From sequence record OQ718158.1: a stretch of DNA of 64,000 bases; one strand, given 5' to 3'. Below, piece after piece: positions 2,786-44,589 of this stretch. The stretch is from Escherichia phage vB_Ec-M-J. A program made the position numbers and the translations under genes. Position 1 is the first letter of the stretch; every line of letters starts with the position of its first letter. The notes beneath the pieces are model-generated. The model was given only the letters and a program-made list of their open reading frames with translations. It did no database searches and was not told the DNA's origin.

Positions 2786-2816
2786 AAAAAGCACCCAAAT
2801 GGGTGCTTTGTCTATT
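2786..2816. terminator. bidirectional intrinsic terminator between convergent genes
   Basis: Hairpin gcaccc-aaat-gggtgc flanked by an A-run 5' and T-rich 3'. Confidence 0.6.
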
Positions 2817-4002
2817 TTGGTGTTTGTAACGTTACAAACGAACCAGTTAATGTATCAGAAGTTGGGTTTATACCAGTATACATAACACCATTACTTATTA
2901 CTATTGCAGTAAGGTTGTAAGACATTGAAATGAAATCATCAGAATCAGTTAGTGAATTTGGAATTAAACTAAATGTAAGTGTTGGATTTGGATTGGAACC
3001 CAAACGAGTTGTATAGTTTCCACCAGTTCCATATAAACCATCTGATTTTTTTATACCTATACCAAAATATCCTTCTGAATATACTGGATACAATTTATAA
3101 TCAGTTCCCATATCAAATGCAATCAAAGTTGGGTTTACAACGTTTCCTGATGCAGAAACACCATTACCCAAGTTACCAGCTATTCGGTTACCACATACCC
3201 ACATTTCATCAACCGATGTTGTAGTATTACGTAATACCATATATGTACCATAGTAAGAAACCATAATATCCGAAACGGTGTATGATGCTTTTGTATATTC
3301 TGTGAACGTTGTTAAGGCAGTTGTGTTACCCGTTCCAAGCTGCCCATTATTATTGATACCACATCGAAAAAGTGTATTATTATTTTTTAATATCCAAGTT
3401 CCATTATCAGCAGCTATACATATTTTTTTAACATCAGTACTAATTAATGTGAATTTAGTTACTGCTGATGTGTTTCCAGTTCCTAATGTACCATTAGCAT
3501 TTCTACCCATTCCGTAAGCTGAACCATCATTGAAATGTATAATTATATTATCCACCCAAACATGTATATCTTTTATATTATTGAGTTGTTCTTCTGTAAA
3601 TACACTAGAAAAGTAACTAGTTCTATCTACATAAACATTCGAGAATGATGACACACCCCCAAATGCATAAGTCGTGGTTGAGCATGATAAAAATTCATCA
3701 GTTTTCGTTTGTAATAATATAAATCGTCCAAAGGAACACCAAGCGTTTTTAACATTACTTCGGATAAGGGTCCAGGTAGTACGGTTAGTGCTTACATCAC
3801 CATCACCAAAAATATAATTTGAACCAGCACCACTACCACCACCACCACCAATTCCCCATAACTCACCATTATCATATAATATTATGATAGCAGAATAGTT
3901 GCTCGTTGTTGGTGTTAGTATTTTAGATATATTTGGTGTTGGAGCACGATTTCCGTACTTCACCATTCTTGCAAATGGAAGCATTTTAAGTCTCCTTATC
4001 AT
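2812..4002 (-). CDS. RCC1-like beta-propeller repeat protein
   Basis: 396 aa; repeated G-x-N-x-x-GQLGTGNT-type motifs (four or more); Gly-rich GGGGGSGAGS segment; only minus-strand gene in this plus-strand block. Confidence 0.5.
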   Translation of the reverse strand: MIRRLKMLPFARMVKYGNRAPTPNISKILTPTTSNYSAIIILYDNGELWGIGGGGGSGAGSNYIFGDGDVSTNRTTWTLIRSNVKNAWCSFGRFILLQTKTDEFLSCSTTTYAFGGVSSFSNVYVDRTSYFSSVFTEEQLNNIKDIHVWVDNIIIHFNDGSAYGMGRNANGTLGTGNTSAVTKFTLISTDVKKICIAADNGTWILKNNNTLFRCGINNNGQLGTGNTTALTTFTEYTKASYTVSDIMVSYYGTYMVLRNTTTSVDEMWVCGNRIAGNLGNGVSASGNVVNPTLIAFDMGTDYKLYPVYSEGYFGIGIKKSDGLYGTGGNYTTRLGSNPNPTLTFSLIPNSLTDSDDFISMSYNLTAIVISNGVMYTGINPTSDTLTGSFVTLQTPK

Positions 4003-7393: not shown

Positions 7394-7409
7394 TTAAAGG
7401 AAAAAGAAT

Positions 7410-10139
7410 ATGTCATCCAAACGCATCATTGGTAGTGCTGCTATACTTGGAAATTTAGCAATTGGTGGAAAGTACGCTATGCGTACTTTTAATGGTACAG
7501 CACCAGACGCAAATACAGGTATTGTTGACTATCCAATTTATAAAAGATCAGAAGTTCAAAAAATACTTGATATGTTACCAATCTCCCGTATAGGGGAAAT
7601 GGATTATCTACCATTAAACGTTAATGGTTCATACGAAGGGGCAACGTCGCTTTCAGATGTATACCGTATGCAACCAACAATAGTCGAAGATGATGGTACT
7701 GGTGTGGTATTACGTGCTGGTACAAATGGTAGTACTGAAGGATATTACTATGCATTCATTCGTGATTTGCGTAATATTGATGCACTAACACAAAGTAGTG
7801 TTATCAGTACTACATCAAAATATCATCCTAGAATTCTTCCAAGTACTGAAAATGTTAAACAGTTTATCGGAACGAATGGTTATGAATTACTAGTTAGCCT
7901 ATCTAGTGCAAGTAATTATATTTTCACTTTAACAAATGGTACATTTAACGAAGTTGCACATATTCACGCTTCTATCGCTGCTACATCATTTGGTACAGAT
8001 AAACCATTGTATGCACATATCGTTAATGATAAAGTATTTGTGTGGTGCAAAGACACTACTATAGCAAACTATGGTTTGGCTTTAACATTATATACTGTTA
8101 ATACAAGTAGTATTAAAGATGGTACTATGAGTACTTTTGCTAAGGTTACTGGTTTTTCTGGTCAAACCTTAAGAAGTGTTAACTACACAAGTGCTAATAA
8201 TTTGAAAATTTATGAAAGATTATATTCAGTTGGAACTAGTAGTGATTCATTATTTGAATGCACTTCACCAGTTACACGAGTTGAATATTCAGATTATACA
8301 GATTATAATATACAAGCAAACGTAAGTCCAGATTTATCAAAGATTAGAATTACATTATTTCCAACTAACCGTTTAGTATCAAATCTATATATTAGTACTG
8401 TTTATGCTAGTGGTTTTAGTTTTGTTTATACTATCAACTCTAAATCATTATCAATTGATGGAAGTAGTAGAGCACCAATAGCAGCGGAATATAATGATGT
8501 TGATGGATTCACATTAACAAACCCATTTGCCATTGAGATGAACAACTTCATGGGTACACAGTTAGGTGTTCCGCAATTAGGTAACGTTGGTTCTATATGC
8601 CAAACCTATGACGGTTTAGTATTCAGTACTCGTGCTCGTTGGAGTTCTTCTGAAACCTATGGTATTCAGGTTTATAACGTAACAGGAACACCATATGATA
8701 GTTGGGTTGCCAGTACTCGCAAAGCGAACAATTCTAAATTTGTAAACGTTGCCCCAACATATGGTAGTGCAGTAGGTGAAAACCTTTTAGGAACACGTTT
8801 TATTGATAAACGTAAAGTACTGTTAGCATGTTCTGGAACATATGAAGATGAGTCATATGGTTATAACAATACAGTATTTTCTGAAATTGGCACTGATCCA
8901 ACCTTCCAGTTCAATTCAGTACAAAACAATACAACACTTAATGGTTTTGCACCACAAGCCAACCGAACTCGCCTCGGCGACAACTACAAATATACAGGTA
9001 TGATTTCATTAATTGATACTGACGGTTCAGTTAAATGTTATGGGACATCATTCATTGAAGGTGTATACAAAACAAGTGGTGGTTTGTTTAACCCAGATAC
9101 TTTAGAATTTGATGGTTCTTATACAATTGGTGATAATGTTCTGGAAACATTAAAACAAGAAATACTTGCTAATATTGGAATAGTAGGAGCATTTACTGGT
9201 AAAATTGCTTTATATTATGTACCAGATAGTTCTTTCTCAAAATCTATTGCGGTGGTTTCTGCATATAACTTAGGAAATAACCAAGGTTATGCAATATATT
9301 CTGAAGTTGATGTCACTGTTTCAGGAACCAATATTAGTTCTGCGTCTATGGTGAGTTCTAGATACGAAACACTTAATTCTGTAACAGGTATTGTAACCGA
9401 AGCCTATATGAAACGCTGTACTGGTCTAACTGTTGCTAAGTATTCTGGTTTTGGTTATATTGGTGTTGATGCAGTTCATCAGTTTTCACAACCTGGTAAT
9501 GCTCAATTCAAATTGATGATTGCTAAAACAGTGAATGGTTTGATTACATCTAACCGATTTATGTCATCCAGCTACATAGATAATGGCAATGCATTCCAGC
9601 ACGGAGTTATACCAGGTGTTGGATTTGGATACTATCATCTTCAAGATTCAGATTATCAAACTAAAGCAGTGTTTAGTCTCTTTGGGACAACATCAGCACA
9701 GATGGATGGGTTGATTGATGGTTCAGGAACTGTACAAGATAAAATCGTAGTAGTTTCACAAGATGTTGCTGAAGGTTTCACTGTGTACTTCACCCGTGAA
9801 GTTCCGGTATTCCTTGGTGGTATGTTTGATAGATTAGCGATTCAAACCATAGAATTAAGTACTATTAAAACTAACCCAGCTAACAGTACTTTTTATCTTT
9901 ACATTCAAATGAACCGTAACACAAGAAAAGCGGCATACGTTATCAGTACAACTCTTCTTGATGAGACATTGACAAACGTATATGTTGGTGATATTGTTAC
10001 TGGAAGTACGAGTATTACGTCAATTGATACTGAAAAGGTAACCCGATTCTTGACATACAGACCTAGTACGACCAAGCGTGGTTCTGCTATCCCAGCAAGT
10101 ACTGGTGTTCCTTCAAGCTCTGGTACACGTTGGCATTAA
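7410..10139 (+). CDS. putative tail fibre / receptor-binding protein, paralog B
   Basis: 909 aa; paralog of 4097..6793 with divergent central region. Confidence 0.5.
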   Translation: MSSKRIIGSAAILGNLAIGGKYAMRTFNGTAPDANTGIVDYPIYKRSEVQKILDMLPISRIGEMDYLPLNVNGSYEGATSLSDVYRMQPTIVEDDGTGVVLRAGTNGSTEGYYYAFIRDLRNIDALTQSSVISTTSKYHPRILPSTENVKQFIGTNGYELLVSLSSASNYIFTLTNGTFNEVAHIHASIAATSFGTDKPLYAHIVNDKVFVWCKDTTIANYGLALTLYTVNTSSIKDGTMSTFAKVTGFSGQTLRSVNYTSANNLKIYERLYSVGTSSDSLFECTSPVTRVEYSDYTDYNIQANVSPDLSKIRITLFPTNRLVSNLYISTVYASGFSFVYTINSKSLSIDGSSRAPIAAEYNDVDGFTLTNPFAIEMNNFMGTQLGVPQLGNVGSICQTYDGLVFSTRARWSSSETYGIQVYNVTGTPYDSWVASTRKANNSKFVNVAPTYGSAVGENLLGTRFIDKRKVLLACSGTYEDESYGYNNTVFSEIGTDPTFQFNSVQNNTTLNGFAPQANRTRLGDNYKYTGMISLIDTDGSVKCYGTSFIEGVYKTSGGLFNPDTLEFDGSYTIGDNVLETLKQEILANIGIVGAFTGKIALYYVPDSSFSKSIAVVSAYNLGNNQGYAIYSEVDVTVSGTNISSASMVSSRYETLNSVTGIVTEAYMKRCTGLTVAKYSGFGYIGVDAVHQFSQPGNAQFKLMIAKTVNGLITSNRFMSSSYIDNGNAFQHGVIPGVGFGYYHLQDSDYQTKAVFSLFGTTSAQMDGLIDGSGTVQDKIVVVSQDVAEGFTVYFTREVPVFLGGMFDRLAIQTIELSTIKTNPANSTFYLYIQMNRNTRKAAYVISTTLLDETLTNVYVGDIVTGSTSITSIDTEKVTRFLTYRPSTTKRGSAIPASTGVPSSSGTRWH

Positions 10140-10146
10140 AAATTTT

Positions 10147-10176
10147 AAGCTCGTCTATTGACGGGCTTTTCTTTTA
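10147..10176 (+). terminator. intrinsic terminator after fibre gene
   Basis: Hairpin gctcgtc-tatt-gacgggc followed by ttttctttt. Confidence 0.6.
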
Positions 10177-10186
10177 TGTGTATAAT
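10158..10186 (+). promoter_or_regulatory. sigma70-like promoter (TTGACG-17-TATAAT) overlapping the terminator
   Basis: -35 ttgacg 10158-10163, -10 tataat 10181-10186, TG two bases upstream of the -10. Confidence 0.5.
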
Positions 10187-10209
10187 GCTAGAAAATACAG
10201 GAGGAAATT

Positions 10210-10776
10210 ATGGTCAAATCTTTACTACCACCACCAAAGCGTCACAAAATCCAAGAAATGAAAGACCAACGTACATTAAAGATGTACAACAATTTAGTTA
10301 AGTTACTGTGTAAAAGTCCATCGCTCAAAGCAGAGTTTAAAACTGATGATGACCGCAAAGCACTAATTGAGATGAAGTATATGCTCAGTAAAATGTCCTT
10401 TTACAAATTTGTAAAAGAATACGCATCTGACCCATTTAGTCCTCGTTGGAGAACCAAACCAAGAGAGTTTTTTTTCGGTGGTTCATATACTGATATCATT
10501 CAAGATACTGTGATAGGCGTAGAGTTCGAGATTGATTATGAGCCGAATGGTGTGGAAAACTTGCTGATTGAGAAACGTTTACCAAGTGAAGAAGAAATTT
10601 ATGTTTATGCAAGAAAACTTTCAACTTACAGTTCAAGAATTACTCTAGGCAAGTTAGATTCATTTATTATTTTCTATATACGTGTTGGCGTAGACAAAAT
10701 GGTAACTAAACTCAATGAACTTTCATTACAACAAAAACAGATTAATGCATACAAAGACATTACTGATTTATACTAA
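10210..10776 (+). CDS. hypothetical protein, tandem paralog family member 1
   Basis: 188 aa; shares an N-terminal module (KSPSLKAEFKTDDDRKALIEMKYMLSK) with the next two genes. Confidence 0.55.
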   Translation: MVKSLLPPPKRHKIQEMKDQRTLKMYNNLVKLLCKSPSLKAEFKTDDDRKALIEMKYMLSKMSFYKFVKEYASDPFSPRWRTKPREFFFGGSYTDIIQDTVIGVEFEIDYEPNGVENLLIEKRLPSEEEIYVYARKLSTYSSRITLGKLDSFIIFYIRVGVDKMVTKLNELSLQQKQINAYKDITDLY

Positions 10777-10782
10777 TGAGGA

Positions 10783-11304
10783 ATGAATATGTTTTTTGGC
10801 CCAGTTGGAAAACAAAACAGTACTTTAATTTGGCATGAAATTATCTTTAAAATTATATCAAAAAGTTTCACACTTAAAGATATCATCAATACAGATCAAG
10901 ATCGTCGTGTTCTGTTAGAAGCAAAATATAAATTGAGCAAACACCCTTTGCTACCATTAATCATTGATTACGTTAATGATTATGAATCCAGTCGTTGGAA
11001 GTTTGAAGAAGGCGGTTTATTTCGTGGAAAAACATTCTACGGTGCGGAACGATATGTATTCAGTGATGCAACAAATGGCGTTAAGTTTGCTATTAGAAAC
11101 TTTAACTCCAAAGAAAATGATTATCTTGAAAGTGGAGTGAAAGTATATATCGATAACAATAGCAATGTTCTAACATATGACGAATCACTAATTATGTTAC
11201 AAATAATGCGTGGCGTTGAAGGTGTAAGACACAATCTTACTAATTTGAAAATTCAGCAAAATGATATACATAATAGACAGAAAATTAAGGGTTTATATAA
11301 ATGA
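10783..11304 (+). CDS. hypothetical protein, tandem paralog family member 2
   Basis: 173 aa; module KSFTLKDIINTDQDRRVLLEAKYKLSK. Confidence 0.55.
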   Translation: MNMFFGPVGKQNSTLIWHEIIFKIISKSFTLKDIINTDQDRRVLLEAKYKLSKHPLLPLIIDYVNDYESSRWKFEEGGLFRGKTFYGAERYVFSDATNGVKFAIRNFNSKENDYLESGVKVYIDNNSNVLTYDESLIMLQIMRGVEGVRHNLTNLKIQQNDIHNRQKIKGLYK

Positions 11305-11810
11305 TTTCATTTTTCAAAAAGAAAGAAAAAGTTGATGAAACTGGATTAGAATCGTTTCTATGGACTCTTATCATCAAAAAAAGTCCATTGATAAAAGAAT
11401 ATGCCATCAATGATACTAATAGAAAAACTATCATTGAATACAAATACGAATTAGCAAAATGTGATCCGATTGTTTACCACTTCGTAAAGTACTGTTCTGA
11501 AAATTTATCGGATATCACTATTGAACACGAGTCAGTACCAATGAGTTTTCCTTATGGAGATTGGGTATATACTTATGATATTTTTGATGGGTCTAACGGA
11601 TTCAGTTTTTATTTCACATCAAATAAAGCATATGTTCGAATCAAAACAGATATAGGTTGGGTATTGCATAGCACAAATAAAGAAGATTATAATTTATTAG
11701 CTGATGTATACAGAAGTGTTAAGAACTCAAAGGATATTGATGAAAGAATTAAAAAGCAAAATCGTATTTCTTTATCAATAGAAACATACAAGTCAAAGTA
11801 TGGTGGTTAA
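11301..11810 (+). CDS. hypothetical protein, tandem paralog family member 3
   Basis: 169 aa; module KSPLIKEYAINDTNRKTIIEYKYELAK; 4-nt overlap with upstream gene. Confidence 0.55.
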   Translation: MISFFKKKEKVDETGLESFLWTLIIKKSPLIKEYAINDTNRKTIIEYKYELAKCDPIVYHFVKYCSENLSDITIEHESVPMSFPYGDWVYTYDIFDGSNGFSFYFTSNKAYVRIKTDIGWVLHSTNKEDYNLLADVYRSVKNSKDIDERIKKQNRISLSIETYKSKYGG

Positions 11811-11812
11811 CT

Positions 11813-12214
11813 ATGACTACAGTTGATGATATCTACAGTACTATACGAAATATGAGTACAGATAGAAAAGTGTTTGGTGACAAAGAAAAGTCAAAATGTT
11901 ATGGCATCGATTCTTTTGATATTATTTCATACGAATATAATAACAACGGGACCAGTTCACTAAACATTGTGTGTCCACGAGATCCAGAAAATAATTTCAT
12001 GTACGTTGAAATTAACAATGATGGTATGTTCTTTACTAAAGTATATAAAGGTGGGAAAGAATACGAACCCATCGAAGTAATGAATGAAGAGAAATTCTTC
12101 CAAGAAGATACCATCATCAATCTTGGATTTAGTTACAATGACTATCAAGTACTGGATCATGATTTTAAACGATACTATAATGGTTTTCTAAAGGAGTTAA
12201 CGATTTACTTATGA
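11813..12214 (+). CDS. hypothetical protein
   Basis: 133 aa ORF tightly packed in the operon. Confidence 0.5.
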   Translation: MTTVDDIYSTIRNMSTDRKVFGDKEKSKCYGIDSFDIISYEYNNNGTSSLNIVCPRDPENNFMYVEINNDGMFFTKVYKGGKEYEPIEVMNEEKFFQEDTIINLGFSYNDYQVLDHDFKRYYNGFLKELTIYL

Positions 12215-13449
12215 AAAACAATTTTCTAGAACAAACTATTGTGAAACACTTAGCTGGTTCACAGGCGTATGGCACAAGCACACCAGAAAGTGATACCGAT
12301 TATCGTGGTATCTTCCTTGCAAACAAAGAATTTATCCTAACTCCTTTTTTTAATGTTAAGGAAGTTTCAGATCCTTCTGAAGAAGATACTAAATTTTATG
12401 AAGTCAATCAGTACTTAAGTCTGTATACTGAAGCTAACCCAAACATTCTTGAATCACTATGGGTTAAACCTGAACACATCGTAGAAAGTACTGAAATCTA
12501 TGACTATCTACGCTCATTCAATCAGCAATTATTGAGTTCAAAGATTGCACACTCATACAGTGGATATGCATACAATCAGGTTAAGCGTATGTCTAATCAC
12601 CACGGCTGGCTCGATAAGGAACGAATTGCTGAACGTAAACTAAATGAAATTTTAGAAGAACATCCAGTTGACGAAGTACTTTCATGGATGTATGATACAT
12701 TCCCGCAGTATTTGGTAGACCGTTTGAATAAATCCAATCTTCACCCATTCAATGCTACAAAAATTGATTTTGAAAAATACATGCGTGATACTTCATTACA
12801 ATTAGTTTCAACACAAGCATTGAAACAATATCATTTTGTACGTTTAGTACATAATTATAGTACTGATAAAGTATTAGATCGTGATTTCAATTTATTGAAT
12901 TACAATTCAGGGTATGAACTAATCCATTACGGTGAAAACATCTTTGGGGTAATTATCAACCCGAATGAAAGTACAGTGAATGCTGATGGTTCACTACGTT
13001 ACTTCAACAAAGAACGTACTACAGAAGAATTGAAAGTTCGTCCTGAACTCATTGTAAAATTCAATGAAAAGGAATACAAAGAAAATAGTGAGAACCGTAA
13101 GAGTTATCACAAATGGAAGCAGAATCGTAATGCCAAACGTGCTATTCTTGAATCACACCACGGTTATGACTGCAAACATGCTATGCATACAATCAGGCTG
13201 CTGAATACAGCACAGGAAGCACTTGAAACTGGTATCATCCAAGTTCACCGACCGGATGCTGCTATGTTGATGGACATTCGTAACGGGAAGTGGTTGTATC
13301 AAGAAGTTATGGATTATTTCAACGAAAAGGTTGACTACATCCGAAATGTGGCGTATCATAAGACCCATCTACCGAAGCGACCAAACATAAAGTTGGCTAC
13401 GAAGGTACTATTAGATATCCGTGAAATGCAATGGTACAGTAAAAAATAA
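12211..13449 (+). CDS. Pol-beta superfamily nucleotidyltransferase (PF10127-like, tentative)
   Basis: 412 aa; N-terminal GSQAYGTSTPESDTDYRG matches a GS...SDxD nucleotidyltransferase signature. Confidence 0.5.
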   Translation: MKNNFLEQTIVKHLAGSQAYGTSTPESDTDYRGIFLANKEFILTPFFNVKEVSDPSEEDTKFYEVNQYLSLYTEANPNILESLWVKPEHIVESTEIYDYLRSFNQQLLSSKIAHSYSGYAYNQVKRMSNHHGWLDKERIAERKLNEILEEHPVDEVLSWMYDTFPQYLVDRLNKSNLHPFNATKIDFEKYMRDTSLQLVSTQALKQYHFVRLVHNYSTDKVLDRDFNLLNYNSGYELIHYGENIFGVIINPNESTVNADGSLRYFNKERTTEELKVRPELIVKFNEKEYKENSENRKSYHKWKQNRNAKRAILESHHGYDCKHAMHTIRLLNTAQEALETGIIQVHRPDAAMLMDIRNGKWLYQEVMDYFNEKVDYIRNVAYHKTHLPKRPNIKLATKVLLDIREMQWYSKK

Positions 13450-13459
13450 GAGGATTGTT

Positions 13460-13876
13460 ATGCTAAACGAACAAATCAAAGACGCACTACGTGTACTGAA
13501 TCGCGAAGTTAACCGCATCCAGAAAAGTACTGATCGTTATAAACTAATGCATGAACTTAGACTTTCGTTGGAAGCTATCAATAATGGCGAATGGTATCTT
13601 GAACCAGAATATCGCACACGTGAACTAACTGACGTTGAAAAAGCAATTGTCAAATTCATTACAAGTCGCGACAAAAATGCATCCGAAAAAGATGTATCAA
13701 TGAACTTCCATCTTACTAAATGTGAAGTCGTGGAAAAATTTAAATTCGATTGGCTTGACTGGATTGAAATGATCATGGAACTTGAAGAAGAATTCAAAGT
13801 TGAAGTTGATTTGGAATACGAGAATGAAAACACTAAACTGTATAAACTCGTAGATCATATTCAAAAAATGTTGTAA
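13460..13876 (+). CDS. hypothetical protein with ACP-like C-terminal helix motif
   Basis: Start moved to the Met with RBS agagga (track start 13421 overlaps upstream gene); DWLDWIEMIMELEEEFKVEV resembles ACP DSLDTVELVMALEEEF but lacks the Ser. Confidence 0.45.
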   Translation: MLNEQIKDALRVLNREVNRIQKSTDRYKLMHELRLSLEAINNGEWYLEPEYRTRELTDVEKAIVKFITSRDKNASEKDVSMNFHLTKCEVVEKFKFDWLDWIEMIMELEEEFKVEVDLEYENENTKLYKLVDHIQKML

Positions 13877-13893
13877 ACATATAATATAGTACA

Positions 13894-13904
13894 CTCTAAA
13901 TAAT
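13894..13904 (+). promoter_or_regulatory. late-promoter-like motif CTCTAAATAAT
   Basis: About 26 nt upstream of the 13930 start. Confidence 0.35.
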
Positions 13905-13929
13905 ATTACCAACTATAGGAGATGTTATT

Positions 13930-14304
13930 ATGAGTGTACTAGAAATTATTGTTTCAAAAGTTTTAATACCATATTGGAAACCAATTTTGGTAGTAGGAGT
14001 AATGGCAGGTTGTGTTTACGGTGGATGGTCAGCAAATACTTATTATACTGGTTATAAAGAAAGTATTGACCAAAAAATAGAAAAGAAAGTTGATTCTGCA
14101 CTCGCTAAGATGCAGCAAGAAAATGCAAAAAACTATATAGAAACCAAAAAGATAATGCAAGATAATGCTAAAGTTATCGAGACACAAGTGCCTATTATAG
14201 TAGAAAGAGAAGTTTACAAAAATGTATGTCTAGATGAAGATGGCGTTAAACTTCTGAATGAACTTAAACAGAATTCCCTTGCAGCGAGGAATAAATTCAA
14301 ATGA
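13930..14304 (+). CDS. i-spanin-like protein (N-terminal TM plus periplasmic coiled-coil)
   Basis: 124 aa; hydrophobic segment near residues 12-32, then charged helical region; lipoprotein gene follows with 4-nt overlap. Confidence 0.5.
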   Translation: MSVLEIIVSKVLIPYWKPILVVGVMAGCVYGGWSANTYYTGYKESIDQKIEKKVDSALAKMQQENAKNYIETKKIMQDNAKVIETQVPIIVEREVYKNVCLDEDGVKLLNELKQNSLAARNKFK

Positions 14305-42944: not shown

Positions 42945-42968
42945 CTTCGAAAATAAAGAAAAAAAGAT

Positions 42969-42996
42969 GTTGACAACGCCGAATGATGTGTTATAA
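42969..42996 (+). promoter_or_regulatory. strong sigma70-type promoter P1 (TTGACA-16-TATAAT, TG-extended)
   Basis: ttgaca 42969-42974, tgt-tataat ending 42996. Confidence 0.65.
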
Positions 42997-43061
42997 TGAC
43001 CATCACGAAGCAAGTTTTCAAAATCACAAGATGTGAGATTGAAAAAGAAATAAAAAAGTTG

Positions 43062-43089
43062 TTGACAAGCCTGAACGATGTGATATAAT
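43062..43089 (+). promoter_or_regulatory. strong sigma70-type promoter P2 (TTGACA-16-TGaTATAAT)
   Basis: ttgaca 43062-43067, tataat 43084-43089 with TG at 43081-43082. Confidence 0.65.
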
Positions 43090-43152
43090 GACCACATCAA
43101 GACGGCAAAGAGAAATGCCTTTTTAAATACACGGATGATTCATGAAGTAACA

Positions 43153-43193
43153 AAGGAACTGATAAGTTAAAAATTCTTTTAACACAGTTCCTT
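43153..43193 (+). other. leader hairpin (9-bp stem, 23-nt loop) between promoters
   Basis: aaggaactg ... cagttcctt; overlaps the -35 of P3. Confidence 0.4.
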
Positions 43194-43220
43194 TACTTTT
43201 GCCCACGGATTGGCTATAAT
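43192..43220 (+). promoter_or_regulatory. sigma70-like promoter P3 (TTTACT-17-TATAAT)
   Basis: tttact 43192-43197, tataat 43215-43220. Confidence 0.45.
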
Positions 43221-43260
43221 AGAAACCTAAACGATTTTATCCAACAAAAGGAAAATATAC

Positions 43261-44589
43261 ATGTCTACTCAAAACAACGATATCCTGAACGTAAAACTGA
43301 CTCCTAAGAAAGCTAAAGAAGCAATGGCACTGGCTGACATGATTCAAGATAGCCTGATGATTTGGGGTAGCCCTGGTATCGGTAAATCTGCTATCGCACG
43401 TCAATACGCTGATGAGAACTACCCACTGCGTAAAGATAACGTGGCAAAAATTGAGTTCATGAAACAACAAATCGAAGCTGATACTGAAAATGCTGATCAA
43501 CTTCGCCGTGAACTGGCAGCGTTTGAAGCCAAACTAATCGACCAAGACACTAACTTTATCGATTTCCGTTTGTCTCAGATTGAACCAAGTGACCTTCGCG
43601 GTATCCCAGTTCCAGAGAAAGTGTTCCTTGATATGGATGGTAAGCAACTGATTGAATCTGAACTGGCTAGTGCACAAGATTACATCGCTGAAACAGCAGT
43701 TGTGTGGGCAGCACCTAAAGTACTGAAGCTGTCTCCAGATTGGAAAGGTGTTATTCTGTTTGACGAAATCAACTCTGCAATGCCGATTGTACAGGCAGCG
43801 TCTTATCAGCTAATCCTCGACCGTTGTGTTGGTGAGATGAAGCTACCTAAGACTGCACTGATTCTCGCAGCAGGTAACCGTGAAACTGATGGCGGTGTAA
43901 CGTTCTCTCTAGCTACACCACTGCGTGACCGTATGACCCACATCGAAATGATTCCTTATCATCAAGATTGGATTAACGATTATGCGATTGGTAAGCGTTT
44001 GAACCCAGCAACTGTAGCGTTCATCAACAACACTGGTGCTAAACACTTCAACACCCTTAGCCCACAAGATCCTTCTCACTGTGGTGGTACTTCTCCACGT
44101 TCATGGGAAGCAGTAGCACGCTACGAAGATCTGAAGAAAGTTAAGAACATTGATAAAGAAGTGTTCCGTGCGATGATTGCAGGTCGTGTTGGTGAAGGCG
44201 TAGCAACTGAATACATCGAGTATGTTGATAACGTAGCTAAACTACCAGATACCATGTCCATCCTACAGGGTGAGATTAAAGAGATTGATGCTTCGCTTGA
44301 TATTTCCGCGAACTACTTCATCACTCTGAATCTGGTTTACAAAATTATCGACCTCTACAATGAGAAGCAAGAACAACGTCTACCAGTGGAAGATTGGGGT
44401 AAGCTGTGCAACAACTTCATCACCTTCCTAGACCATAACTTCTCTGCAACTCAAGCAGAACTGGCAGTACTGGCGATTCGTACCATCACGCTTCATAAAG
44501 TAGCGATTACGATTAAAGATGTACCAGCGTTTAAAGACTTCGTTATGAAGTACTCTGACCTAGTACGTAAAGCACGCTCTCTTGGTTAA
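43261..44589 (+). CDS. AAA+ ATPase, MoxR/CobS-like (AAA_5)
   Basis: 442 aa; Walker A GSPGIGKS, Walker B ILFDEINSA; CTG-rich codon usage unlike neighbours. Confidence 0.7.
   Translation: MSTQNNDILNVKLTPKKAKEAMALADMIQDSLMIWGSPGIGKSAIARQYADENYPLRKDNVAKIEFMKQQIEADTENADQLRRELAAFEAKLIDQDTNFIDFRLSQIEPSDLRGIPVPEKVFLDMDGKQLIESELASAQDYIAETAVVWAAPKVLKLSPDWKGVILFDEINSAMPIVQAASYQLILDRCVGEMKLPKTALILAAGNRETDGGVTFSLATPLRDRMTHIEMIPYHQDWINDYAIGKRLNPATVAFINNTGAKHFNTLSPQDPSHCGGTSPRSWEAVARYEDLKKVKNIDKEVFRAMIAGRVGEGVATEYIEYVDNVAKLPDTMSILQGEIKEIDASLDISANYFITLNLVYKIIDLYNEKQEQRLPVEDWGKLCNNFITFLDHNFSATQAELAVLAIRTITLHKVAITIKDVPAFKDFVMKYSDLVRKARSLG

Follow-up and report, generated by a model that had tools for sequence, protein, structure and literature searches.

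The three tandem genes A, B, and C in the window (the whole stretch of 64,000 nucleotides that was analyzed, DNA of an Asteriusvirus, a Rak2-like jumbo coliphage) encode full-length homologs that all belong to a single-domain family with a length of about 170 aa, and the N-terminal helices are merely the best-conserved part of that domain. We hold the descriptive part of our account with high confidence: the genes are ancient full-length paralogs, they belong to one orphan family, and that family makes up the variable, dispensable front of a cassette built around an RlaP-family nucleotidyltransferase. The best overall reading, which we put forward tentatively, is that the three proteins are dispensable accessory factors in an RNA-repair operon that is non-virion and probably early. 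The functional part of that reading (i.e., transcription by the host RNA polymerase, an accessory role to RlaP, and the repair of tRNA damage) is possible, but we regard it as doubtful. The features discussed below are as follows.

10147..10177, + strand: intrinsic-terminator-like hairpin and T-run, AAGCTCGTC-tatt-GACGGGCTT, which ends the upstream virion-protein gene
10158..10186, + strand: sigma-70-type promoter-like site, TTGACG-17 nt-TATAAT, 11/12 matches
10210..10776, + strand: paralog A, 188 aa, A-type subfamily, phrog_18641
10312..10392, + strand: core motif of A, KSPSLKAEFKTDDDRKALIEMKYMLSK
10783..11304, + strand: paralog B, 173 aa from ATG 10783, B-type subfamily, phrog_18641
10861..10941, + strand: core motif of B, KSFTLKDIINTDQDRRVLLEAKYKLSK
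11301..11810, + strand: paralog C, 169 aa, C-type subfamily, phrog_7868
11379..11459, + strand: core motif of C, KSPLIKEYAINDTNRKTIIEYKYELAK
11813..12214, + strand: gene D, 133 aa, phrog_22376, a well-conserved cassette partner
12211..13449, + strand: nucleotidyltransferase of the RlaP family (PF10127), conserved as the 3' anchor of the cassette

The three open reading frames lie where a sequence-only reading of this DNA had placed them, and the N-terminal motif that it described is real. The motif common to A, B, and C is K-S-x-x-L-x(5-6)-D-x-x-R-x-x-I/L-I/L-x-x-K-Y-x-L-S-K, and the similarity is above chance both in BLASTP of A against C (42% over 48 aa, E 2e-5) and in the alignment of N-terminal profiles (E 3e-10). 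For B, initiation at ATG 10789 (171 aa) appears more likely than at ATG 10783, given that a GAGGA box is directly adjacent to 10783, whereas its distance to 10789 is 6 nt, and that the annotated orthologs begin MFFG. The C start and the B stop overlap as ATGA.

The sequence-only reading also proposed that this motif is a common targeting or binding module joined to unrelated C-terminal effectors, the whole array forming a tandem anti-defense arsenal. Such an architecture would agree with the uneven conservation of the protein (mean pairwise identity among 33 family members is 42% in the core motif versus 17-20% in the rest) and with the BLAST matches of A and of B (E 1e-3) to C, which are confined to the N-terminal region. 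However, homology extends into the C-terminal halves. A and B (BLASTP E 8e-16) align end to end, with 30% identity over 175 residues, and the C-terminal halves alone give a profile score of 25.9 versus 9.7 +/- 1.5 for column shuffles, none of 100 of which reaches the observed score. Each protein also has a full-length PHROG match, to phrog_18641 for A (E 1e-77) and B (E 3e-80) and to phrog_7868 for C (E 2e-51); B in addition matches C's PHROG end to end (E 4e-10), and hhalign joins the AB profile to the C profile over 145 columns (97.5% probability, E 8e-12). All 33 aligned members are colinear as far as an invariant C-terminal Tyr, almost every representative matched the whole profile in an exhaustive HMMER scan, and no domain swaps were found among the family's 35 representative clusters. 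In the exhaustive search, the N-terminal motif was never seen as an independent fused module but only in proteins of about 150 to 200 aa whose match spans the entire profile. The C-terminal regions are homologous, not different domains, and we give the module-plus-effector arrangement almost no credence. One outlying protein, P0035 (1934 aa, a eukaryote-like CAP/SCP repeat protein), gave four motif matches (E 4e-5), which we judged spurious because a short-motif match had its score inflated by repetition.

Structure prediction leads to the same picture. The AF2 model of B (pLDDT 88.6, pTM 0.80) is predicted to be one compact domain, not a module plus an effector, with a disordered Lys/Pro-rich N-terminal tail, four helices that bear the KS...D..R...KY.LSK motif, a sheet of four strands, and a C-terminal helix of 40 residues with the invariant Tyr at its end. 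(An earlier AF2 model from 8 sequences was poor, with pLDDT 62.6, and was discarded; its Foldseek search gave nothing meaningful.) The confidently modeled domain has no structural neighbor in the PDB, and no structural similarity ties the family to RNA or to RlaP. XRCC4, PAXX, and SAS-6 type proteins, which have a head domain and a long helix, are one known kind with which the family can be compared. Searches of Pfam, NCBIfam, PADLOC, and PDB sequence profiles gave no above-threshold match to a known defense, antidefense, or helix-turn-helix (HTH) family; a sub-threshold PADLOC match (14.5 bits) between A and DUF2290, like the scattered Pfam matches of single members, was dismissed as noise.

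The family is confined to Rak2-like jumbo phages, and jumbo phages related to them, that infect enterobacteria. Word-indexed homolog searches, whether with a single protein or with a 16-sequence profile, returned close orthologs only, and the exhaustive HMMER scan reached further; an IMG/VR scan with the AB-type alignment, the 33-sequence alignment being too divergent to use, returned 121Q and RaK2 only. The A/B/C family is a lineage-restricted set of small proteins in tandem expansion in a giant phage genome. Its members have been catalogued as two separate PHROGs with no function assigned, phrog_18641 (matched by A and B) and phrog_7868 (matched by C), which the full-length profile matches show to be one family, and its orthologs are annotated as hypothetical (121Q 502-504; RaK2 gp001 and gp002; phAPEC6 gp321c-gp319c).

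The paralogs are ancient, since family copies cluster by array position across genera. Array order is fixed over deep divergence, AB-type first and C-type last, and a C-type copy is the final family gene of the array in every case. At the nucleotide level, no repeat is present among A, B, and C, only chance-sized similarities of 18 to 20 nt, on which recent gene conversion or duplication among them was rejected. The array is not a recent expansion, with its ancient subtypes in fixed order and its operon context kept across genera. Gene-wide dN/dS is 0.07-0.25 for the family versus 0.04-0.07 for D and RlaP; the one family value of 0.7 is uninformative, as the two sequences compared are almost identical and differ by too few changes. 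On this gene-wide measure, the family is under purifying, not diversifying, selection. The tandem diversification envisaged by the sequence-only reading is not seen as a recent process; of the two observations that would together tell against its idea of host takeover, purifying selection was found, and a structural homologue with a housekeeping function was not. Compared with RaK2, family members in the window are 26-33% identical, D is 57% identical, and RlaP is 71% identical; judged from the sequences, the family evolves faster than its neighbors. When close relatives are compared, no DNA in the neighborhood is more conserved than the A-C block; in the window lineage, the block and its promoter as a unit are 88-97% identical to the 121Q group versus 54-84% for the flanks.

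Upstream of A, a terminator and a promoter-like site are folded into one element. The loop and 3' arm of the hairpin (dG -13.5 kcal/mol, z -6.7) include the -35 box of the promoter-like site, which lies 23 nt upstream of the A start codon. TTGAC and the -10 box are kept in all aligned relatives, and the same hairpin layout, with different but complementary stems, recurs in about 15 lineages; covariation was judged from per-lineage folds because a MAFFT alignment put some of the hairpins out of register. Sites with at least 11/12 promoter matches number 10 on the + strand of the window and 0 on the - strand. The proposal that a promoter drives the array gains support from the strong conservation of the promoter-like site along with the terminator. 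No terminator was found downstream of the array before 15238, and so the transcription unit may extend into spanin-like genes. In the region, no RNA elements reached Rfam gathering thresholds, and there are no tRNAs in the window.

The family belongs to a tightly packed and conserved cassette, of which it is the promoter-proximal end in about 15 lineages. Its order is the terminator/promoter hairpin, the family (0 to 4 copies), sometimes DUF4326/Thg1, D, sometimes a gene X, and RlaP. RlaP is co-oriented and lies 0 to 4 genes downstream at every locus long enough to show it (about 15 lineages), and the family was not found outside the RlaP cassette at any locus examined. Gene D is 57-67% identical across genera, and the RlaP start overlaps its stop. 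As a candidate fourth paralog, D was rejected (no phmmer match; 16% identity when an alignment was forced). L027 has two genes, one of the Thg1 family and one with DUF4326, between family copies and directly upstream of RlaP. The family is present in about 50 phage records versus 202 for RlaP, and EJP2 has the promoter, D, and RlaP but not one family gene; RlaP thus does not need the family. Going by gene content, the family is dispensable in the cassette, as EJP2 illustrates, and this failure of co-occurrence makes it an optional accessory at most.

RlaP extends the 3' ends of damaged RNA by 1-2 NMPs and rescues the function of over-damaged tRNA (PMC12776372), and a role as a jumbo-phage RNA-repair enzyme has been predicted for it (PMC7824862). 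The cassette resembles the RlaP-centered RNA-repair neighborhoods of the Burroughs and Aravind concept (PMC7824862, PMC12776372; T4 NrdC.11) in that the array is co-oriented and closely packed with RlaP (PF10127), with Thg1 interleaved in one lineage and DUF4326 often present. Unlike the described neighborhoods, which have RNA ligases (RtcB, Rnl), kinases, and phosphatases, this cassette has none of these; the RNA ligase and polynucleotide kinase of RaK2 are encoded away from it. This family has not previously been described as an RNA-repair component. The family-RlaP link is one of gene neighborhood within one broad phage clade, and linkage of that kind may partly reflect shared ancestry or position, not shared function.

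Could the array instead belong with the virion genes around it? The orthologs are missing from both published virion proteomes: gp316c-gp321c are absent from that of phAPEC6, in which the flanking gp314c, gp315c, and gp323c are present, and gp001-gp009 are absent from that of RaK2. A structural role does not fit these data, but proteins that serve the large virion or tail-fiber proteins next door as assembly chaperones or accessory factors would likewise be expected to be absent from virions, and the array does lie directly downstream of virion-protein genes of ~900 aa and, in 121Q and A4, upstream of tail-fiber genes. Against this, the conserved terminator and separate sigma-70-type promoter split the array from the upstream gene, and EJP2 has the ~900 aa upstream structural genes yet no family gene. 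Nor do the two co-vary between the window and 121Q (dN 0.20 and dS 1.6 for the upstream gene; dN 0.03 and dS 0.14 for A). The family genes are tightly packed or overlap with D and RlaP, and not with fiber genes, which suggests translational coupling. A chaperone role is thus very improbable. It is somewhat easier to imagine A, B, and C as small nucleic-acid-binding regulators, e.g., of early transcription or translation, acting via a basic helical module: the family has a basic median pI of 8.9, its N-terminal tails are rich in Lys, the helical module bears K, R, and K at conserved positions, and the genes are promoter-proximal in a probably early operon. However, Pfam, NCBIfam, and the fold search returned no HTH or other DNA/RNA-binding family, and regulators seldom persist as 2 to 4 ancient paralogs in fixed order; we consider this explanation improbable.

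A more serious competitor is the idea that A, B, and C are generic promoter-proximal "moron-like" early host-takeover genes that share just a transcript with D and RlaP, in a slot behind a strong promoter that tolerates the gain, loss, and duplication of small genes. Such a slot would account for the copy number of 0 to 4, for the insertion of DUF4326 and Thg1 at the same place, for a family far less widespread than RlaP and evolving faster than its neighbors, and for the near identity of the A-C and promoter unit to the 121Q group between more divergent flanks. What speaks for a closer tie to RlaP is that the family never strayed from the RlaP cassette in the loci examined, that the AB-then-C order has been kept over deep divergence, and that the other recruits to the slot are RNA- or nucleotide-related enzymes, not a random set. 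We therefore treat the shared-transcript explanation as a possibility to be taken seriously but one that we doubt.

Returning to the RNA-repair reading, we propose a mechanism in which the cassette would be transcribed by the host RNA polymerase, probably early, and the family proteins would serve as accessory factors to RlaP-centered repair of RNA (tRNA) damage. Would they act as paralog-specific adaptors, each delivering to RlaP certain damaged RNAs or partner enzymes, or would they bind and neutralize the host nucleases responsible for the damage? The C-terminal amphipathic helix may mediate homo- or hetero-oligomers between AB-type and C-type copies. A role in phage-host conflict over tRNA damage is a reasonable but unproven candidate, given that the family always stands at the variable front of an operon that ends in an RNA-repair enzyme. 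The host-interaction or counter-defense idea in the sequence-only reading remains plausible in this light (absence from two virion proteomes, a sigma-70-type promoter, 0 to 4 copies, faster evolution, and the RlaP cassette), while the architecture of a shared targeting module with variable effectors, on which that idea was built, gives way to full-length, single-domain homologs. We speculate further, and consider it unlikely, that the family is a new fold class in which AB-type and C-type proteins hetero-oligomerize through their C-terminal helices, so that RlaP (and Thg1 where present) would gain specificity for different cleaved tRNAs; alternatively, the paralogs might each inhibit different host anticodon nucleases. 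If this were true, the copy number of 0 to 4 would track the host-range repertoire of RNA-targeting defenses.

Overall, this is a fairly ordinary uncharacterized phage paralog family for which the earlier modular model is wrong. Several results are useful whether or not the RlaP link holds: two PHROG families are merged into one, a confidently modeled domain has no structural neighbor in the PDB, and a terminator and a promoter are combined, with compensatory changes, in one element in many jumbo phages. That dual element could help annotate transcription units in poorly understood jumbo phage genomes. If the RlaP link is true, phage RNA-repair enzymes of the RlaP type would have in these proteins their first described accessory partners, the variation in copy number would amount to a natural experiment, and the family would offer a handle on how giant phages respond to host attack on tRNA.

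Diverged copies of what alignments indicate is a single protein family, genes A, B and C sit between a combined terminator and promoter and an RlaP nucleotidyltransferase (NTase) gene, in the following arrangement.

10147-10177: terminator-like hairpin followed by a T-run, in the 70-nt gap 5' of A
10158-10186: promoter-like TTGACG-17-TATAAT, in the same gap
10210-10776: A, 188 aa
10783-11304: B, 173 aa
11301-11810: C, 169 aa
11813-12214: D, 133 aa
12211-13449: RlaP, PF10127 nucleotidyltransferase

The sequence-only reading had placed the ORFs of A, B and C exactly where we find them; D, which it had taken into the range of the array, bears no relation to the family. B probably starts at ATG 10789 (171 aa) rather than at ATG 10783, the start of the longest ORF, because a GAGGA box lies 6 nt from 10789 yet abuts 10783, and because orthologs begin MFFG. 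The jumbo coliphages Ecwhy_1, fEgEco12 and EC.P1 are 98-99% identical to the window over 9000-13500, where 121Q and PBECO4 (Rak2-like phages of the genus Asteriusvirus) reach ~83%. Orthologs of A, B and C are 121Q genes 502-504, phAPEC6 gp321c-gp319c and, in part, RaK2 gp001 and gp002, every one annotated as a hypothetical protein.

The same reading posited a shared N-terminal module joined to unrelated C-terminal effector halves; it was right about the motif and wrong about the architecture. BLASTP matches 48 residues of A and C at 42% identity (E 2e-5) and B to C at E 1e-3; between the two subfamilies, profile alignment of the N-terminal parts has E 3e-10. Across 33 family members, mean pairwise identity is 42% in the core motif (B residues 27-53), 17% in the sheet region and 20% in the C-terminal helix. 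That the C-terminal halves are also homologous is seen in five separate results: A and B share 30% identity across 175 residues (E 8e-16); B matches the PHROG family of C end to end; the AB-type profile (10 proteins) aligns with the C-type profile (6 proteins) over 145 columns at 97.5% probability and E 8e-12; the C-terminal halves alone align colinearly over 85 columns with a score of 25.9, against 9.7 +/- 1.5 (maximum 14.4) in 100 column shuffles; and the 33-member alignment is colinear as far as an invariant Tyr at or near the C terminus. On these alignments we show here that PHROGs 18641 (AB-type) and 7868 (C-type), both of unknown function, are a single family. The disordered N-terminal tails (A residues 1-20 in the family alignment) recur in two types, M-(x)-F-F-K-K-K-like and P-P-(P)-K/R-R-like; these may be short linear motifs or a consequence of A/T-rich translation-initiation regions.

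The AlphaFold2 model of B, made with a 33-sequence alignment, is confident (pLDDT 88.6, pTM 0.80).

Elements of B in the AlphaFold2 model
Residues 1-16: basic tail, low confidence
Residues 17-25, 31-34, 38-52 and 57-65: four helices with the conserved motif
Residues 72-75, 89-95, 100-106 and 119-123: four-stranded sheet
Residues 132-171: single C-terminal helix

The first third of the C-terminal helix is hydrophobic throughout, and the rest carries a hydrophobic stripe with a spacing of 3-4, with the invariant Tyr at its end. As modeled, B is one domain with no division into module and effector, and the PDB holds no structural neighbor of this predicted domain.

When 1.84 billion cluster representatives were scanned exhaustively with HMMER, only 35 matched at E < 1e-3, nearly all of them 148-197 aa long and covering the full profile. 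In the annotated phage collection, tblastn found the family in 44 records, from Asteriusvirus and Alcyoneusvirus (RaK2, K64-1 and Muenster), and the family HMM picked up further members, divergent ones, in Salmonella phage PHA46 and in Erwinia phage Hallingskeid. In a neighbor-joining tree, copies cluster by array position and not by genome, so the paralogs are old: A-type and B-type clades each have 121Q, A4 and JNE01 members, the last array gene is always C-type, RaK2 has one AB-type and one C-type copy, and locus L015 has an extra lineage-specific expansion. No nucleotide-level repeat was found among A, B and C. Identity between the window and RaK2 is 26-33% for family members, 57% for D and 71% for RlaP.

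dN/dS among four Asteriusvirus genomes
A: 0.13-0.25
B: 0.16-0.20
C: 0.07-0.16
D: 0.04-0.06
RlaP: 0.04-0.07

A, B and C are thus under purifying selection, which is relaxed two- to fourfold relative to D and RlaP, with no gene-wide sign of positive selection in these genomes. What was unexpected is that, in comparisons with four loci (L001, L006, L007 and L016), the window and the 121Q group share 88-97% identity across the A-C block with its promoter (10200-11800), whereas identity is 54-80% in the upstream 909-aa gene (7400-10140) and 77-84% in D plus RlaP (11800-13450); dS is 0.14-0.42 across A-C and >1.4 in the flanks. In this mosaic region the block seems to have been exchanged recently as a unit. 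The closest relative of C is in phage Turkey3 (98.2% aa), and A is identical to its Ecwhy_1 counterpart; together with the contrast between block and flanks, these differing relatives suggest recombination inside the cassette.

At every locus long enough for judgment, the family genes lie in the same cassette. We compared the window, 121Q, UE-S1, ph0011, phAPEC6, A4, JNE01, RaK2, Muenster, PHA46, Hallingskeid and eight metagenomic lineages. Large virion-protein genes precede the cassette, which runs from the hairpin and promoter through the family genes, sometimes a DUF4326 gene, D and sometimes gene X (150 aa, RaK2 gp004-like) to RlaP; spanin-like genes and an HNH gene follow. In the window, A and B are 6 or 12 nt apart, B and C overlap by ATGA, C and D are 2 nt apart, and D and RlaP overlap by 4 nt, packing that fits a single operon with translational coupling. 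Family copy number ranges from 0 to 4.

Family copies per cassette
0: EJP2
1: L012, Hallingskeid
2: RaK2, Muenster, L019, L023, L028, L029
3: Asteriusvirus, L022, PHA46
4: L027; L015 (at least 4, the contig being incomplete)

The order in L027 is family, Thg1, family, DUF4326, family, family, RlaP; therefore, a second RNA-end-repair-type nucleotidyltransferase (Thg1) sits within the array. The DUF4326 gene is inside the cassette in L012, L019, L022, L023, L027 and L029, and in the window it lies at 2009-2335, between nrdD (168-2000) and an nrdG-like gene (2313-2783); it seems to move between these two sites. An RCC1-repeat protein gene (396 aa; 2812-4002, minus strand) is the sole sizeable opposite-strand gene in that part of the window. 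Directly 3' of the NTase, the window, UE-S1 and ph0011 have an acyl-carrier-like gene (window 13421/13460-13876), and two tail-fiber genes of ~175 and ~930 aa that follow the NTase in 121Q, A4 and JNE01 (L001 10528-13946) are missing (window 13449-13930). The RlaP frame is ~740-760 aa rather than ~412 aa in metagenomic L029 (9627-11855) and in the unverified TH47 record (L008 1492-3768); either the frame is fused to the gene downstream or the extra length is a sequencing artifact.

As the putative terminator of the preceding gene, the hairpin holds the -35 box of the promoter in its loop and 3' arm, and the terminator T-run doubles as the spacer of the sigma-70-type promoter (10147-10186). This compact layout stands 5' of the first cassette gene in every lineage examined (the window, L003, L012, L015, L019 and L021-L029), and EJP2, without any family gene, is among them. 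Stems vary by lineage and keep their complementarity (AAGCUCGUC, AAGCCUGUC, GAGGUUGUC, AUGGCUGUC, GAGACUGUC and others), with inner pairs tracking the -35 variant (CGUC with GACG, UGUC with GACA); folding energies are -12.3 to -18.8 kcal/mol per element (z -2.7 to -7.8 versus shuffles). The dual element is conserved across many jumbo-phage lineages with compensatory stem changes. Because its layout is kept across lineages, the earlier proposal that this promoter drives the array appears well supported, and the sigma-70 type suggests that the cassette would be expressed early. Ten sites in the window with at least 11/12 promoter matches lie on the main coding strand and none on the other. The 316-nt intergenic region 42945-43260, upstream of a 442-aa ORF (43261-44589), has two perfect 12/12 sigma-70 matches (42970-42997 and 43062-43089) inside a tandem duplication of ~45 nt and a third -10-like box near 43215; a search there for an Rfam family or tRNA found none.

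What might A, B and C do? RlaP enzymes extend the 3' ends of damaged RNA by one or two nucleotides and are required to restore function of tRNAs from which additional nucleotides have been lost, T4 NrdC.11 being a family member (PMC12776372); jumbo-phage RlaP is predicted to repair RNA against host attacks on tRNA (PMC7824862). The A/B/C family is never observed outside the RlaP cassette, where Thg1 and DUF4326 genes share its slot and a host-type promoter precedes it. Its members are basic (median pI 8.9), go undetected in virions, evolve faster than the accompanying enzymes and can be dispensed with, their copy number varying between cassettes. From this context we tentatively favor the reading that A, B and C may be accessory factors of an RlaP RNA-damage response: they might be adaptors that serve particular substrates or partners, or they might bind host nucleases. 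We speculate that AB-type and C-type copies would act as hetero-oligomers, because most genomes keep one of each and because of the long amphipathic helix. It is also possible, if doubtful, that they are unrelated early accessory genes sharing a transcript and nothing more. That they are small nucleic-acid-binding regulators is unlikely.

No family protein was detected in the two virion proteomes consulted. For phAPEC6, gp314c, gp315c and gp323c are listed and gp316c (RlaP), gp318c (D), gp319c, gp320c and gp321c are missing (PMC7247149 Table 1); for RaK2, gp010, gp011 and gp526-534 are listed and all of gp001-gp009 are missing (PMC3622015 Table S3). The presence of gp010 and gp011 (L002 5027-5709) among these mass-spectrometry virion proteins is odd, given that their Muenster orthologs are annotated as i-spanin and o-spanin. 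A role as fiber chaperones is very improbable, since the terminator intervenes, there is no covariation with the upstream gene, and EJP2 lacks the family. Least credible is the modular-effector model, which the homology results and the single-domain model contradict. A, B and C belong to no characterized family, and their neighborhood alone assigns them, to the RlaP cassette; they did not classify as virion proteins (phAPEC6 and RaK2 proteomes), fiber chaperones, polymorphic modular effectors, curated defense or HTH families, or an XRCC4-like fold.

The paralog family formed by A, B and C is real, uncharacterized and, for a phage, fairly ordinary. Most useful are the confidently predicted domain without a PDB neighbor, the dual terminator/promoter element with its conservation, and how tightly the family is tied to an RNA-repair operon.
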